64,000 nt of DNA from positions 3,664 to 67,663 of the forward strand of contig JAFGFN010000181.1 in the NCBI GenBank assembly GCA_016931035.1, in the 5' to 3' direction. The DNA comes from Candidatus Sumerlaeota bacterium (GTDB lineage: Bacteria; Sumerlaeota; Sumerlaeia; UBA8349). A program made the translations under genes and the position numbers. Positions 1 to 9,949 of this stretch are shown in pieces. Position 1 is the first letter of the stretch, and each line of letters begins with the position of its first letter. The notes below the pieces were generated by a model. The model had not been told where the DNA came from. It ran no database searches and was given only the letters and a program-made list of their open reading frames with translations.

Positions 1-1482
1 TACGATTCCGCTCGGAATCGGCTGTTCTGCGCCATCGACCGCTTCGGTATCAAACCCTTCTACTACCGCGAGACCTCGGCCGGCTTCCTGTTCGCAAGCG
101 AGATCAAGGCCCTGTTGGCCGTGCCGGGAGTCCCACGCGAGTTGGACGCGCCCGCCCTCGGCGAGTGGTTCGCCTATCGTTCCCTGGCCTCGGAGAGGAC
201 GCTGCTCAAGGGGATCCGTCAGCTTCTGCCCGGGCACTCCGCCGTGGTCGACGAGCAGGGGGTGCGGATCGTTCGTTACTGGGACGTCGCGCAGTACCTG
301 GGAGACCCGGATACTAGGGTGGATGCTCTCACCGCCCTCGAAGGGATCGACTCGCTATTGCGAGAAAGCGTGTCTCTCCAACTGCGCAGCGACGTTCCCG
401 TCGGCTGCCAGCTCAGCGGCGGCGTCGATTCGAGCCTCACCACGGCTCTGATGGCCCAGGAGGTGGGAAGCCAGGTCCGAGCCTTCTCCATCGGTTTCCG
501 AGACGACGATCCCTGTAACGAGATTCCCTTCTCGAAGGCGCTGGCGGAACGCTACGGACTCGAACACCACCAGATTATCTTGCGCGGCGAGGACTGTGCC
601 CGGCTTCTTCCGGAGATGATCCGGCTTCGCGACGGCCCCATCGGGCACCCCAGCTCGATCGCCGTCTACGCCATGTGCAAACACGCGAAGCCGTACATCA
701 CGGTGCTTTTGTCGGGCGAAGGCTCGGACGAGATCTTCGGCGGGTACGATCGTTACCATATTCTGCTTCACCGCCTGAACCCGTTCATCGACAAGCCATT
801 GCGTTGCCTGCCTCGATGGACGCCGCGAATAGGGCCGCTGGCCAAGGCGATGAAGTGGAAGCGGCTTCTCTCGCCCAGTGTCGAGAAAATGGTCGTCCAC
901 AGCATCGCCTGTCACAAACCGGCGAAGATTCGGAATCTGTTGCGAGACGGATTGACCGACAGAGGCGACGTTCGTCGCCGCCGGGAAATCGCGGCGGAGC
1001 CCGGGTTGTCGCCCTTCGAAGGGATGCAATGCCTCGACATCAAGGCCCGCCTGACGTCGATTCTGGCCCGGCAGGACCGAATGAGCATGGCCGCCAGCGT
1101 CGAGACGCGCGTTCCGTTCCTCGATCATCGGCTGGCGATCTTCGCCGCACGTCTGCCTCGAGGGCTGAAGACCCGACGCCGCGAGGGAAAGTGGCTTCTG
1201 AAGAAGTACGCCGAGAATCTGATGCCCCGCGCGAACATCTATCGCAAGAAGATCGGCTTCGCCACCCCCTTTGTCCGTTGGCTGGGCGACGAACGGGATC
1301 TGGGACGGTATCTGCCCGAGTTGACCGCGCCGAACGCCGTTTCAGCCGGTCTCTACCGGCCGGGAGCGGTGAGGGAGAGTATCGAACGTTTCCGGCGGGA
1401 CCCCAGTCACGGAAACGCCGATCTCGTCTGGACCCTGATCAACGTCGAGGTTTGGATGCGAACGCATCGCGTCGTGTTCTGA
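1..1482 (+). CDS. asparagine synthetase (glutamine-hydrolysing)-like amidotransferase, 5' end outside window
   Basis: Frame 1 is open from nt 1. The translation YDSARNRLFCAIDRFGIKPFYY...FASEIKALL resembles the AsnB family and carries the PP-loop motif SGGVDSS. The ORF-track entry 115..1482 is the tail of the same frame. Confidence 0.85.
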   Translation, partial: YDSARNRLFCAIDRFGIKPFYYRETSAGFLFASEIKALLAVPGVPRELDAPALGEWFAYRSLASERTLLKGIRQLLPGHSAVVDEQGVRIVRYWDVAQYLGDPDTRVDALTALEGIDSLLRESVSLQLRSDVPVGCQLSGGVDSSLTTALMAQEVGSQVRAFSIGFRDDDPCNEIPFSKALAERYGLEHHQIILRGEDCARLLPEMIRLRDGPIGHPSSIAVYAMCKHAKPYITVLLSGEGSDEIFGGYDRYHILLHRLNPFIDKPLRCLPRWTPRIGPLAKAMKWKRLLSPSVEKMVVHSIACHKPAKIRNLLRDGLTDRGDVRRRREIAAEPGLSPFEGMQCLDIKARLTSILARQDRMSMAASVETRVPFLDHRLAIFAARLPRGLKTRRREGKWLLKKYAENLMPRANIYRKKIGFATPFVRWLGDERDLGRYLPELTAPNAVSAGLYRPGAVRESIERFRRDPSHGNADLVWTLINVEVWMRTHRVVF

Positions 1483-1493
1483 CCCGCATCCCG

Positions 1494-2255
1494 TCAACTC
1501 ACGTTGAGGTTCTTGGAGCGCAAGTAGTTCTTGAGTTCCGGGATGTCGATCATGTGGAAGTGGAACACCGATGCGGCGAGGAGGATGGTCGCCCCGGCCT
1601 CGACCGCCTCGTAGAAATGTTCGAGTTGGCCCGCGCCGCCCGAAGCGACGATCTCGGCCGAAACGGCCTGGGCCATGGCGCGGATCACGGGGAGGTCGTA
1701 TCCCGTCTTGGCGCCGTCGCCCGCCTTGCTCGTCGGCAGGATGACGGCGACGCCGAGACCGTCGACGCGTTTCGCCCACTCGAGCGCGTCGTGTCCGGTG
1801 GCGGTCCGCCCGCCGTCGATGTAGACCTCGTAGCCGCTCGGGAGTTTCGGGTTGCGGTCCACGTCGATGGCGACGGTGACCTTGTCGGGTCCGAACTCGC
1901 GCACCATTTCTTCGAGGACGGCGGGATTGCGAAATCCCGCGCTGCCGACCGAGACCTTGTCCGCACCGGCGTCGAGGACCGCTTGGGCGGTCGCGACGCT
2001 CGAAATGCCGCCGCCGACGGTGAAGGGGACGGTGGCGGCGTCGGCGACGCGCCGGACGACGTCGAGCATCGTGGCGCGTCCCTCGACGGTCGCCGTGATG
2101 TCGAGCAGGGCCAGTTCGTCGGCCCCGGCCTCGCAATAGGCGCGCGCGCATTCGACCGGGTCCCCGGCGTCGCGAATATCGACGAAGTGCACCCCTTTGA
2201 CAACGCGTCCGTTTTGCATATCGAGACACGGCATGATGCGAACGGGTCGGTTCAT
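1494..2255 (-). CDS. hisF: HisF-like imidazole glycerol phosphate synthase cyclase subunit homolog (no HisH nearby)
   Basis: Translation [24 protein letters not shown]...GGGI...DKVSVGSA has the (beta/alpha)8 HisF signature. An internal ATG at 2255 is preceded by a GAGGAGGG Shine-Dalgarno sequence; the longest ORF extends to 2270. Confidence 0.8.
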
Positions 2256-2266
2256 GGTTTCCCTCC

Positions 2267-7845: not shown

Positions 7846-9209
7846 CACGCGCTCCGCGGCTCGAGGACCGAGATCACGGCCTTCGGCGTACGGCGTTTGT
7901 GGCGTGCGCTGTCCGCCGGTTGAATCTTGCTGGCGAGTCCCGAGGCGAGCTCCCATACGCCGGGGGCCGCGCTTCTCGTGGCGGGGACAGCCGTTGTGGC
8001 GTCCCCCACGCACGGCTCGGGATACGACACCAGCATCCCCTCGAAGTTGCGGAGGACCGTATGCGTCGGGCTCGTCGAGACGACGTAGTTGGGCAGCACG
8101 GGCAGTTTGCCGCCGCCATGGGGCGAATCCACGACGAACGTCGGGATCGCCAGGCCGCTCACGCGCCCCCGCATGTATTCCATGATCTCGATGCCGCGCG
8201 ACATCGGTGTGCGGAAATGCTCGACGCCGCGCACCAGGTCGCACTGAAACAGGTAGTACGGACGCACGCGCATCCGAATCAGACCGCGGCACAACCGTTC
8301 CATGATTTCCGGGTCGTCGTTGACGCCGCGCAAGAGAACCGATTGGTTGCCCAGCGGAATCCCCGCGTCGGCGAGCCGCGCGCAGGCCTGCGCGGAGTCG
8401 GGCGTGATTTCGTTCGGGTGGTTGAAGTGCGTGTTCACCCAAATCGGCAAATACTTGCGCAACATCGCCGCCAGATCGGCGGTCACCCGCATCGGCAACG
8501 TGACCGGGGTCCGCGTTCCAATGCGGATCACCTCGACGCTCGGAACCGAGCGCAGGGCGATGAGGATGCGTTCGAGCGCGTCGGTGCTCAGGGTGAAGGG
8601 GTCGCCACCCGAGACGATCACGTCGTGAATCTCGGGATGGGCTCTCAGATAGGCGGCGATCCGCGCAAGACGCTGAGCCGGAAGACTGCTCTCGCGCACT
8701 CCCGCTACGCGCTTGCGCGTGCAGTGACGGCAGTACATGGCGCACGTCGTCGTGGCGATCACGAGCGCTCGGTCCGGATAGCGATGCACCAGTCCTGGCA
8801 CGGGCGTGTCGTGGTCTTCTTCGAGCGGGTCGTCTTTGAGGAAAGGCGGGTCGATAAGTTCCTGCGACTGGGGCACGGCCATCAGAAACGCGGGATCGGA
8901 TTCGTCGAACGAACGGATCAGAGAGGCGTAATAGGGAGTGATAGCGAGAGGGAATCTCTCCGCCGCTCTCATCGATCCCGGAGAAGGCTCGAAATCCTTG
9001 AAAAACCGCTTCAGGTCCTCGGCCGACCGGATCCGATTGCGCATCTGCCAACGCCAGTCGTTCCACTGGGGCGCGGTCGCGAGATCGGCGAGCCGCACGG
9101 AAAGATCTTCCTCCGCCGACTCGGGCTCGGCGAGAACGATGGATGGGGATGGAGGCTTGTCGTCTGCGACCTCGCATTCCACCGCGATTGCCGACTGAGC
9201 TTTTGTCAT
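7845..9209 (-). CDS. kamA: lysine 2,3-aminomutase family radical SAM enzyme (KamA/AblA-like)
   Basis: N-terminal motif WNDWRWQMRNRI and radical-SAM cluster TTCAMYCRHCTRKR are characteristic of KamA. Confidence 0.85.
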   Translation of the reverse strand: MTKAQSAIAVECEVADDKPPSPSIVLAEPESAEEDLSVRLADLATAPQWNDWRWQMRNRIRSAEDLKRFFKDFEPSPGSMRAAERFPLAITPYYASLIRSFDESDPAFLMAVPQSQELIDPPFLKDDPLEEDHDTPVPGLVHRYPDRALVIATTTCAMYCRHCTRKRVAGVRESSLPAQRLARIAAYLRAHPEIHDVIVSGGDPFTLSTDALERILIALRSVPSVEVIRIGTRTPVTLPMRVTADLAAMLRKYLPIWVNTHFNHPNEITPDSAQACARLADAGIPLGNQSVLLRGVNDDPEIMERLCRGLIRMRVRPYYLFQCDLVRGVEHFRTPMSRGIEIMEYMRGRVSGLAIPTFVVDSPHGGGKLPVLPNYVVSTSPTHTVLRNFEGMLVSYPEPCVGDATTAVPATRSAAPGVWELASGLASKIQPADSARHKRRTPKAVISVLEPRSA

Positions 9210-9253
9210 AGTAACTGTCTAGTCCTCCTGTCTTCGGTAGTCGAACCCCGCGG

Positions 9254-9949
9254 CTAGAGCGGGGAGCGTTGCGCTGCGTCGCCCAGGAACGAACGGGCGG
9301 CCGAAACCATCGCGGCGCGAAGCGGCACCATGCTTTTCTCGATTTCTCCCGGCGCCATGTCGATCATGGCGAACGAAAGGAATCCCGAAACGAATCCCGC
9401 TACGGCGCAAGCCAATCGCCGCACCTTGAGTGGGTCGATCGGCTGAGGCACGAACGGAGCGATCTGTTTCCCGATTTCTCGAAGATACAAGTTGAAAGGC
9501 TCCTCGATGGCGCCGTCTTCGTCGCGTTCGAGCTTCAAGAACAACCGGCCCTGAAACAACAAGATGAATTCATCGCGATTCTCTCGAAAGAACCCGAGGT
9601 GCGTGTCGAGCAGACGCTCCAACGTCTCCTGCAGATTCCCGCGCGGTTCTCCCTTGCCTCGAATCCCGACCACGAGCCGGTCCACCGCGTCTTCGATCAG
9701 CGCGGCCATCAACTCGTCTTTGCTCGTGAAATGCCGGTACAGGGTTCCCTTACCTAGGTCCGCCGCCTCAGTGATCTCTTCGATAGTGGTCGCGTCTACA
9801 CCCTTTTCCGAAAAGAGGGCTAAGGCCGCTTGCAACAACTTCTTACGAGTCCGAATAACCCGTTTTTGCGTCCGGGTGACAGGCTCCAAGTCGCTGGCGG
9901 ACCGTCCATTCATCAGTGGTAGTATGGTCACGCCGGACCAAAAAGTCAA
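9254..9949 (-). CDS. TetR family transcriptional regulator
   Basis: N-terminal HTH region KKLLQAALALFSEKGVDATTIEEITEAADLGKGTLYRHFTSKDEL is the TetR signature. An alternative start lies at ATG 9913. The gene ends 45 nt upstream of kamA on the same strand. Confidence 0.8.
   Translation of the reverse strand: MTFWSGVTILPLMNGRSASDLEPVTRTQKRVIRTRKKLLQAALALFSEKGVDATTIEEITEAADLGKGTLYRHFTSKDELMAALIEDAVDRLVVGIRGKGEPRGNLQETLERLLDTHLGFFRENRDEFILLFQGRLFLKLERDEDGAIEEPFNLYLREIGKQIAPFVPQPIDPLKVRRLACAVAGFVSGFLSFAMIDMAPGEIEKSMVPLRAAMVSAARSFLGDAAQRSPL

Follow-up and report, generated by a model that had tools for sequence, protein, structure and literature searches.

A widespread five-gene cassette combining a lysine 2,3-aminomutase, Ddl-like ligases and a GNAT-deacetylase fusion: a candidate beta-lysine pathway in Candidatus Sumerlaeota

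Which members of a densely packed bacterial gene array belong to one pathway, and what would that pathway make? We address this question for positions 1-9949 of a stretch of 64,000 nucleotides (nt), hereafter the window, from a contig of a Candidatus Sumerlaeota metagenome-assembled genome (MAG). The array runs on the minus strand from a TetR-family regulator through a lysine 2,3-aminomutase homolog (KamA), a GNAT-deacetylase fusion protein (hereafter the fusion), two Ddl-like ATP-grasp ligases (Ddl1 and Ddl2), a small GNAT protein and a SEFIR/TIR-domain protein to HisF, and an AsnB-like amidotransferase gene faces it on the opposite strand. The original prediction, made from the letters of this region, described the array as a single nine-gene operon and as a candidate source of an undescribed beta-lysine-derived small molecule or oligopeptide. 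Here we report a comparative analysis in which the region resolves into one conserved five-gene unit making a beta-lysine product and a set of unrelated neighbors, a reading to which we assign a probability of about 0.6. The five-gene cassette (KamA, the fusion, Ddl1, Ddl2 and the small GNAT) is widespread and so far uncharacterized, and it probably builds an acetylated beta-lysine-containing small molecule, either an N-acetylated amide or a peptide.

The recurring five-gene unit

Homologs of the fusion protein number in the thousands across many phyla and share 45-68% identity with it; 17 of them were aligned (alignment A1). To compare gene neighborhoods, one genome per species was scanned with the fusion protein, yielding 80 loci, each flanked by as much as 10 kb per side, and all proteins of the window were compared with these loci by tblastn. 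KamA, the fusion, Ddl1, Ddl2 and the small GNAT were found together in 34 of the 80 species-level loci, and the carriers of the cassette belong to the Alpha-, Gamma- and Deltaproteobacteria, Planctomycetota, Bacteroidales and Dehalococcoidia. Restricting the count to the 36 loci whose flanks reach 6 kb or more on each side leaves 19 with the full set of five, six with two to four of the genes, and 11 with the fusion alone. The cassette loci display seven gene orders, of which KamA-Ddl1-Ddl2-fusion-GNAT is the commonest (22 loci); the order seen in the window recurs in two loci (L061 and L077) and partly in three others (L045, L079 and L081). The closest syntenic relative found, L081, encodes a KamA and a fusion that are each 66% identical to those of the window, and reads TetR-KamA-fusion-Ddl1-(Ddl2~GNAT), followed directly by priA.

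We regard these five genes as the conserved unit, because only they recur together across the loci. The single nine-gene unit of the original prediction is thereby reduced to five genes, or six with TetR, and what the recurrence bears out is a genuine beta-lysine-linked biosynthetic unit, which is conserved and apparently has no description so far. The expected co-occurrence of KamA, the GNAT-deacetylase, two Ddl proteins and a GNAT was confirmed; that of SEFIR and HisF with them was not. All-against-all clustering of the open reading frames (ORFs) around the cassette revealed no conserved transporter, regulator, short ORF or precursor peptide, the only recurrent clusters being antisense shadows of the core genes. 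None of the fusion, the two ligases and the small GNAT reaches the cutoff of any NCBIfam model. Full-text literature searches brought up no description of the cassette, and prior work in subscription journals is possible.

Gene fusions tie the members of the cassette to one another. In 12 of the 34 loci the deacetylase and the GNAT form one ORF with the architecture GNAT-deacetylase-GNAT, e.g., a protein of 756 amino acids (aa) in Filomicrobium (L013, positions 10001-12271), and Ddl2~GNAT fusions of 505-550 aa make up the majority of the 120 closest Ddl2 homologs and occur in L081 as well. In the window, Ddl2 and the small GNAT are separate genes, and the small GNAT is not fused to the deacetylase. 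Since the GNAT is fused to the deacetylase in some loci and to Ddl2 in others, we infer that the small GNAT works with both, and its link to the deacetylase and to ligase 2 is independent evidence that the cassette represents one pathway.

The domain architecture differs by lineage: the loci with the tri-domain GNAT-deacetylase-GNAT protein include several proteobacterial MAGs, and the named Ddl2~GNAT bifunctional proteins (P0243 and about 100 others) come mostly from Planctomycetota-type lineages. A lone fusion gene, with no KamA, ligase or GNAT gene within 6-10 kb, was observed at L001, L004, L012, L051, L052, L058, L063, L068, L072, L076, L078 and L082; these loci include some of the closest relatives (60-66% identity), and no alternative neighbor is conserved at them.

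Predicted activities of the core proteins

Homology and conserved specificity residues identify KamA as a predicted radical-SAM, pyridoxal phosphate (PLP)-dependent lysine 2,3-aminomutase that makes beta-lysine. Its best-scoring model is AblA (TIGR03820), which it matches just below the threshold (495.3 bits vs a cutoff of 525.4); the scores on the models of glutamate 2,3-aminomutase (427 bits vs a cutoff of 650), EpmB (239 bits) and the arginine enzyme are all lower. In the characterized lysine 2,3-aminomutase, two aspartates (D293 and D330) hold the epsilon-ammonium group of lysine, K337 is the PLP lysine, and the CxxxCxxC motif belongs to the cluster. All these residues are aligned between the Clostridium subterminale enzyme (PDB 2A5H; E 7e-138) and KamA of the window, and across 37 cassette-linked KamA sequences neither the equivalents of D293, D330 and K337 nor the three cluster cysteines vary.

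The two ligases were mapped on E. coli DdlB by pairwise alignment and by MAFFT alignment of 44 Ddl1 and 41 Ddl2 orthologs. The catalytic, ATP-binding and magnesium-binding residues of the ATP-grasp fold (K97, K144, K215, R255, D257, E270 and N272) are invariant in both sets, with the sole exception of E270, which is replaced by Asp in two of the 41 Ddl2 sequences. The positions that determine substrate specificity in DdlB are altered, and differently in each paralog: Ddl1 has Y216 replaced by Glu (33/44), L282 by Asp (40/44) and E68 by Arg (43/44), and Ddl2 has Y216 replaced by Trp (41/41), S150 and S281 by Ala, and L282 by Gly. Because the ATP-grasp residues are kept and the D-Ala-site residues are replaced, both proteins are, judging by their sequences, active ligases with substrates other than those of D-Ala-D-Ala ligases; a cationic substrate, such as a diamino acid, would be a good fit for the extra acidic residues of Ddl1. 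Both retain the fold and the catalytic residues of the D-Ala-D-Ala ligases (Ddl/Van), with Ddl and VanA as their best PDB and NCBIfam matches and no models other than Ddl/Van matching. Unlike these enzymes, they have consistent replacements of S150, Y216, S281 and L282, and their best Ddl-model scores (167 bits for Ddl1 and 113 bits for Ddl2) are well under the NCBIfam cutoff of 243.

The fusion is predicted to begin with a GNAT domain and to end with a Zn-dependent deacetylase of the acetylpolyamine amidohydrolase (APAH) type. Its deacetylase domain scores 243 bits on PF00850 (cutoff 27.9), and the best PDB matches are the APAHs 6phr, 9gkz and 3q9b, with E from 9e-70 to 7e-62. The metal ligands and catalytic residues that it has in common with APAHs, such as that of Mycoplana ramosa (3Q9B) and 6PHR, are invariant in alignment A1: the His-His dyad H393/H394, the set D426/D428/H430/H431, D517, and the catalytic tyrosine Y556. 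The N-terminal domain carries an invariant glycine motif (G94, G96 and G98 in A1), apparently resembling the acetyl-CoA-binding motif of GNATs. No NCBIfam model matched the fusion protein at E <= 1e-3. APAHs hydrolyze acetyl groups from primary amines that end an aliphatic chain, and an N-epsilon-acetyl-(beta-)lysyl group would, by analogy, have the chemical shape of their substrates. In contrast to APAHs, the deacetylase of the cassette is preceded by a GNAT domain (and in some phyla also followed by one) and is embedded among KamA and ligase genes.

The NCBIfam matches of the small GNAT are all weak, with RimI as the best named model (41 bits vs a cutoff of 86), followed by PRK03624 and PRK10146, and neither this protein nor the GNAT domain of the fusion matches the AblB-type model. 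Its likely ortholog in the PDB is 2R7H, an uncharacterized structural-genomics protein (E 1e-34), whose structure could aid substrate docking for the small GNAT. The 2R7H entry was deposited as a "putative D-alanine N-acetyltransferase of GNAT family", a name that was probably guessed from neighboring Ddl-like genes.

Three known pathways resemble parts of the cassette. The N-epsilon-acetyl-beta-lysine pathway (AblA/AblB) of methanogens and some bacteria likewise begins with an AblA-like lysine 2,3-aminomutase in which the lysine-binding aspartates are kept, and it couples beta-lysine formation to acetyl-CoA-dependent GNAT chemistry, as the cassette would. It differs in that the cassette has no AblB-type GNAT, a KamA that scores just under the AblA equivalog cutoff, and the additional two ATP-grasp ligases, second GNAT domain and APAH-type deacetylase. 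The AblA/AblB logic that had been proposed for this locus is thus half supported, on the AblA side.

In the synthesis of N-acetylglutaminylglutamine amide (NAGGN) by Ngg and AsnO, a GNAT is physically and functionally coupled to an ATP-grasp ligase, as in the Ddl2~GNAT fusions, and by this analogy the fusions suggest the synthesis of an N-acetyl-dipeptide solute. The ligases of the cassette are, however, Ddl-type, and the substrate would be beta-lysine rather than glutamine; in the Ddl2~GNAT fusion P0243, only Ddl and RimI models match, and no Ngg model appears among the best 25 of its 30 matches. The NAGGN logic of the original prediction is therefore retained for the GNAT and ATP-grasp pair, for which the fusions speak, and abandoned for the AsnB-like gene, which fails the AsnO model and has no linked homolog in the 80 cassette loci.

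The pyrrolysine pathway comprises the radical-SAM lysine mutase PylB, the Ddl-like ATP-grasp ligase PylC, and PylD. There, too, a radical-SAM enzyme that rearranges lysine feeds a Ddl-like ligase joining a diamino acid by an amide bond. The cassette differs from it in that PylB is not a member of the KamA family, PylD has no counterpart in the cassette, and the Pyl pathway has no modules for acetylation or deacetylation. PylC was not among the PDB sequence matches of Ddl1 or Ddl2.

Proposed product and alternative readings

Based on these assignments, we propose the following sequence of reactions. KamA would turn L-lysine into beta-lysine, and Ddl1 and Ddl2 would form two ATP-dependent amide bonds on free amino-acid-type substrates, not D-Ala-D-Ala. 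The two GNAT domains would acetylate amino groups, one of them coupled to ligase 2 in an Ngg-like manner, as the fusions indicate, and the APAH-type deacetylase would strip the acetyl group from an aliphatic N-acetyl-amine, e.g., the N-epsilon-acetyl group of a (beta-)lysyl moiety. Overall, one amine of beta-lysine would be protected by acetylation, the protected compound ligated, and the protecting group removed; the protection would steer ligation to the other amine, or keep the acyl-phosphate from forming a lactam. The expected product is an N-acetylated molecule of the cytoplasm that would contain beta-lysine and resemble a di- or tripeptide, plausibly a compatible solute, and the absence of a conserved exporter near the cassette favors such a cytoplasmic product.

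In this specific form, i.e., a previously undescribed beta-lysine N-acetylated di- or tripeptide made by Ddl-type ligases with GNAT-APAH(-GNAT) protection and deprotection and serving as a widespread cytoplasmic metabolite, the proposal is tentative and one that we would not quite back at even odds. The more general candidacy of the locus for an undescribed beta-lysine-derived small molecule or oligopeptide is kept for the five-gene cassette, whose AblA-like KamA has the lysine-binding residues. If a distinct beta-lysine conjugate is made, the cassette would represent a new, phylogenetically broad pathway built from a radical-SAM aminomutase and non-canonical Ddl paralogs. It would provide a function for large families now annotated as "histone deacetylase family protein", "D-alanine--D-alanine ligase", "GNAT" or "hypothetical", explain the recurrent GNAT-deacetylase fusion, and extend the short list of beta-amino-acid metabolites and osmolytes. 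Carriers of the compound, which might be a new class of compatible solute, would then include Desulfobacterota-type Deltaproteobacteria, marine Alpha- and Gammaproteobacteria, Planctomycetota, Bacteroidales, Dehalococcoidia and Sumerlaeota.

Several points weigh against this interpretation. What the product is, and in which order the steps run, is entirely a matter of inference, and the N-epsilon-acetyl-beta-lysine intermediate is a guess, because neither GNAT matches the AblB model. That acetyltransferase and deacetylase share one polypeptide could reflect regulation or turnover, not protecting-group chemistry. The fusion stands alone in 11 of the 36 well-flanked loci, where it may act independently or its partners may lie elsewhere. 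The mapping of DdlB residues is only as good as the MAFFT alignment behind it, in which identity is about 25-30%. Finally, with gaps of 11-39 nt and no terminator detected in them, the SEFIR gene and hisF could be co-transcribed with the cassette.

Among the alternatives, it is unlikely, yet worth weighing at some length, that the cassette modifies a macromolecule, through beta-lysylation of a protein, of the type carried out on elongation factor P by EpmA and EpmB, or of a cell-wall or surface peptide, with the acetyltransferase and deacetylase acting on lysyl side chains. Enzymes of the histone deacetylase family often deacetylate protein lysines, and Ddl enzymes are part of cell-wall metabolism; the small GNAT has RimI as its best named model, weakly, and the occurrence of the fusion by itself in nearly a third of the well-flanked loci (11/36) would also fit. 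KamA, however, scores far higher on AblA (495 bits) than on EpmB (239 bits), the nearest relatives of the deacetylase are APAHs acting on small molecules and not protein deacetylases, and Ddl-type ATP-grasp enzymes join free amino acids. No target-gene candidate, Mur or Fem gene, or exporter is conserved near the cassette.

Still less probable, in our estimate, is a role in the salvage, turnover or regulation of N-acetylated lysine or diamine compounds, in which the deacetylase would free the amine, KamA would interconvert lysine and beta-lysine and the GNATs would re-acetylate; the cassette would then be no dedicated route for making a new compound. The predicted opposing GNAT and deacetylase activities within one polypeptide and the reversibility of the KamA reaction, which is established enzymology, are compatible with this role, as is the kamA operon of Bacillus subtilis, which also pairs an acetyltransferase with a deacetylase-type hydrolase. 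Against it, the two conserved ATP-consuming ligases with intact catalytic residues point to synthesis, one of them is fused to a GNAT in most close homologs, and no transporter, dehydrogenase or aminotransferase of a catabolic type is conserved nearby.

Neighboring genes and the remaining window

Domain calls were made by Pfam and NCBIfam profile searches of the window products (Table 1), and they upheld all of the assignments proposed earlier for KamA, the GNAT-deacetylase, the two Ddl-like proteins, the GNAT, SEFIR/TIR, HisF, TetR and AsnB-like genes. The GNAT-deacetylase, TIR and Ddl2 products share 98-100% identity with NCBI proteins of this Candidatus Sumerlaeota bacterium.

Table 1. Positions and supporting matches of the genes in the array and of the gene following it
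Feature	Position	Strand	Basis
AsnB-like (cut off by window start)	1-1482	+	Asn_synthase E 7e-85 (Pfam)
HisF	1494-2255	-	His_biosynth E 4e-70 (Pfam)
"orf160" (160 aa)	2267-2737/2749	-	ORF listing; C-terminal half of broken SEFIR gene
SEFIR/TIR ORF (321 aa as annotated)	2448-3413	-	SEFIR E 5e-11; TIR_2 E 4e-8 (Pfam)
Complete bSEFIR-like gene, both ORFs joined	2267-3413	-	Frameshift near 2705-2712
Small GNAT, core gene 5	3453-3941	-	Acetyltransf_1 E 2e-13 (Pfam)
Ddl2, Ddl-like ATP-grasp ligase 2, core gene 4	3973-5055	-	Dala_Dala_lig_C E 3e-22 (Pfam)
Ddl1, Ddl-like ATP-grasp ligase 1, core gene 3	5009-6061	-	Dala_Dala_lig_C E 1e-31 (Pfam)
GNAT-deacetylase fusion, core gene 2	6058-7845	-	Hist_deacetyl E 5.8e-72; N-terminal GNAT matches weak, E 1e-4 (Pfam)
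KamA, core gene 1	7845-9209	-	LAM_C and Radical_SAM (Pfam); AblA model 495 bits (NCBIfam)
TetR-family regulator	9254-9913	-	TetR_N E 1.7e-18 (Pfam)
Trypsin-like protease	10061-12124	-	ORF listing

The minus-strand genes are packed as tightly as had been described. TetR and KamA are separated by the largest gap (44 nt), the start of the fusion gene overlaps the KamA stop codon (TGATG, an overlap of 1 nt), the fusion and Ddl1 overlap in ATGA, and the reading frames of Ddl1 and Ddl2 overlap by 47 nt; gaps of 31 nt between Ddl2 and the GNAT, 39 nt between the GNAT and SEFIR, and 11 nt between orf160 and HisF complete the array. A scan for terminators returned 13 terminator-like sites, compared with 11.8 +/- 3.5 from shuffles, and none within any intergenic gap of the minus-strand array, so that no internal terminators splitting the array were detected. 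The dense co-directional array of the original prediction is accordingly real; the number of its genes is eight, as the SEFIR ORF and orf160 together constitute one frameshifted gene.

This packing, with gaps of at most 44 nt, several overlaps and no terminator-like site between the genes, is what would commend a reading in which all co-directional genes from TetR to HisF, together with the AsnB-like gene, serve one pathway to a complex beta-lysine-derived molecule. We consider it very unlikely. SEFIR, orf160 and HisF had no tblastn match in any of the 80 loci and are likewise missing from L081, the SEFIR gene is frameshifted and compositionally foreign, and HisF appears to be canonical. The AsnB-like gene, on the other strand, gave a single weak and unlinked match at 27% identity in L046, where it lies in opposite orientation to the fusion gene and some 7 kb away from it. 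SEFIR, HisF and AsnB are therefore regarded as neighbors and not as members, because none of them accompanies the cassette in the sampled loci, and co-localization, by which the original prediction proposed to judge membership, goes against the SEFIR/TIR, orf160, HisF and AsnB genes. For genome scanning, the lesson is that dense co-directional packing overstated the unit, which comparative synteny trimmed from nine genes to five or six.

HisF is predicted to be the canonical, housekeeping cyclase subunit of imidazole glycerol phosphate synthase, outside the cassette. Its score on the hisF model TIGR00735 (277.8 bits; cutoff 294.55) exceeds those on WbuZ (203.3; cutoff 299.7) and AglZ/HisF2 (178.6; cutoff 310), and it matches HisF proteins in the PDB over its full length (E 7e-78 to 2e-74), with the catalytic aspartates of the CLD and AID motifs aligned. 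A scan of about 30 window ORFs turned up neither another his gene nor a HisH-type domain; hence HisF is an orphan by position, as had been stated, and apparently an ordinary HisF by sequence.

The AsnB-like gene is convergent with hisF, the stop codons being 11 nt apart, and as a gene on the opposite strand it cannot share a transcript with the array. Its product scores above the cutoff of the asn_synth_AEB model (300.7 bits vs 267.1) and far below that of the NAGGN AsnO model TIGR03104 (237.8 bits vs 570.1), and it also failed the XrtA-amidotransferase model; it thus appears to be a glutamine-hydrolyzing asparagine-synthase-family gene unrelated to the cassette. The complete protein (621 aa) is encoded by the Logan contig L084 (run SRR13394437), which is 100% identical to the window over positions 1-6565 and runs 931 nt (6566-7496) past the window start; on this contig a 93-aa ORF precedes the AsnB-like gene on the same strand. 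The suggested analogy to the acetamidino-forming systems WbuXYZ and WbpG-HisH2-HisF2 fails at both ends: the HisF2/WbuZ-type subunit is missing, given that the hisF model outscores WbuZ and HisF2, and so is a co-oriented AsnB-like enzyme, the gene here being convergent; there is also no adjacent HisH.

The SEFIR ORF and orf160 are best explained as one broken gene. A homolog of 225 aa, P0167, aligns across both frames (the SEFIR frame covers its residues 27-54, and the orf160 frame residues 45-204), and joining the two ORFs extends the match to the bSEFIR profile from positions 38-203 to 38-329 of 412; we therefore conclude that they form a single gene with a frameshift near positions 2705-2712. 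Orf160 as an independent gene was rejected, as P0167 aligns across both reading frames. The tail of the SEFIR ORF past about 2760 appears to be out of frame, and the last roughly 100 residues of the 321-aa TIR protein as annotated are read-through. Contig L084, an independent assembly, carries the identical frameshift, which makes an assembler-specific error unlikely, although both assemblies may derive from one read set. P0167 (L083, positions 266-943) was the one retrieved homolog with the helical C-terminal module of the SEFIR gene, and no SEFIR domain is encoded upstream of it on its metagenome contig of 1.3 kb. This module matches no Pfam, NCBIfam or PADLOC family.

The G+C content at third codon positions is 0.63-0.66 in the SEFIR gene vs 0.75-0.85 in its neighbors. 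SEFIR homologs have only the SEFIR domain in common, with many unrelated C-terminal domains and unrelated genomic contexts, and the closest of them sits among integrase, Fic, helicase, DprA and AAA genes. The gene is thus a putative horizontally acquired, frameshifted, bSEFIR-type defense gene (SEFIR domain, linker and helical C-terminal module) lying outside the cassette. bSEFIR has been experimentally shown to be a single-gene anti-phage system (Millman et al. 2022, bioRxiv 10.1101/2022.05.11.491447); the window gene shares its N-terminal SEFIR domain, matching the PADLOC profile PDLC03957 over residues 5-176 (E 7.6e-41), and unlike it is frameshifted, without an intact ORF.

This match to a family with anti-phage activity is the argument for a defense module, in which a NADase-like TIR/SEFIR effector would be wired to the cassette, as the original prediction also envisaged, e.g., via a signaling molecule or toxin that the cassette makes. 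We find such a module highly improbable, since bSEFIR is a one-gene system, PADLOC models match none of the cassette proteins, and the SEFIR gene never lies next to the cassette in other loci and is disrupted here; its deviant third-position composition, the diverse partners and contexts of its homologs, and the location of the closest homolog in an integrase/Fic/helicase island likewise point to an unrelated acquisition. Microviridin-type clusters combine two ATP-grasp ligases with a GNAT, which would recall a graspetide-like ribosomally synthesized peptide whose precursor these enzymes tailor, a reading with hardly any chance given that gaps of at most 44 nt leave no room for a precursor gene in the window, no small ORF is conserved, and the ligases are Ddl-type, not RimK- or microviridin-type, and are accompanied by no protease or transporter.

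The TetR protein is, as far as homologs indicate, a clade-specific, local regulator (a putative repressor) added to the cassette in its closest relatives only. The proposal that the array is under a TetR regulator is consistent with the position of the gene, which immediately precedes KamA in the window and has counterparts at the same place in L003 (54% identity) and L081 (50%); no match to TetR was found in the other 79 of the 80 species-level loci, L003 being the sole carrier there. Translation of TetR may start at ATG at 9913 or TTG at 9949, and a promoter-like site is located at 9949-9921. A search for palindromic operators in the upstream regions of TetR and KamA (seed 6) found nothing.

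Further along the window, a DUF4238 protein gene (15794-16699, minus strand) follows murC in a stretch of lower G+C content (about 0.61), and a protein of the RuBisCO large-subunit family is encoded among unrelated genes at 44653-46002 on the plus strand (RuBisCO_large E 1.5e-47, and the N-terminal domain). A corrinoid adenosyltransferase gene (CobA/BtuR) adjoins genes for a FecCD, ABC ATPase and periplasmic-binding-protein transporter (56551-60346, minus strand), likely forming an uptake unit for cobalamin or an iron siderophore. Carbohydrate-active genes on the plus strand at 12238-13821, 20564-22024, 22702-24306 and 25741-27456, which encode a pectate lyase, two pectinesterases and an MGH1-like glycoside hydrolase, suggest a lifestyle based on the degradation of pectin or other plant polysaccharides.

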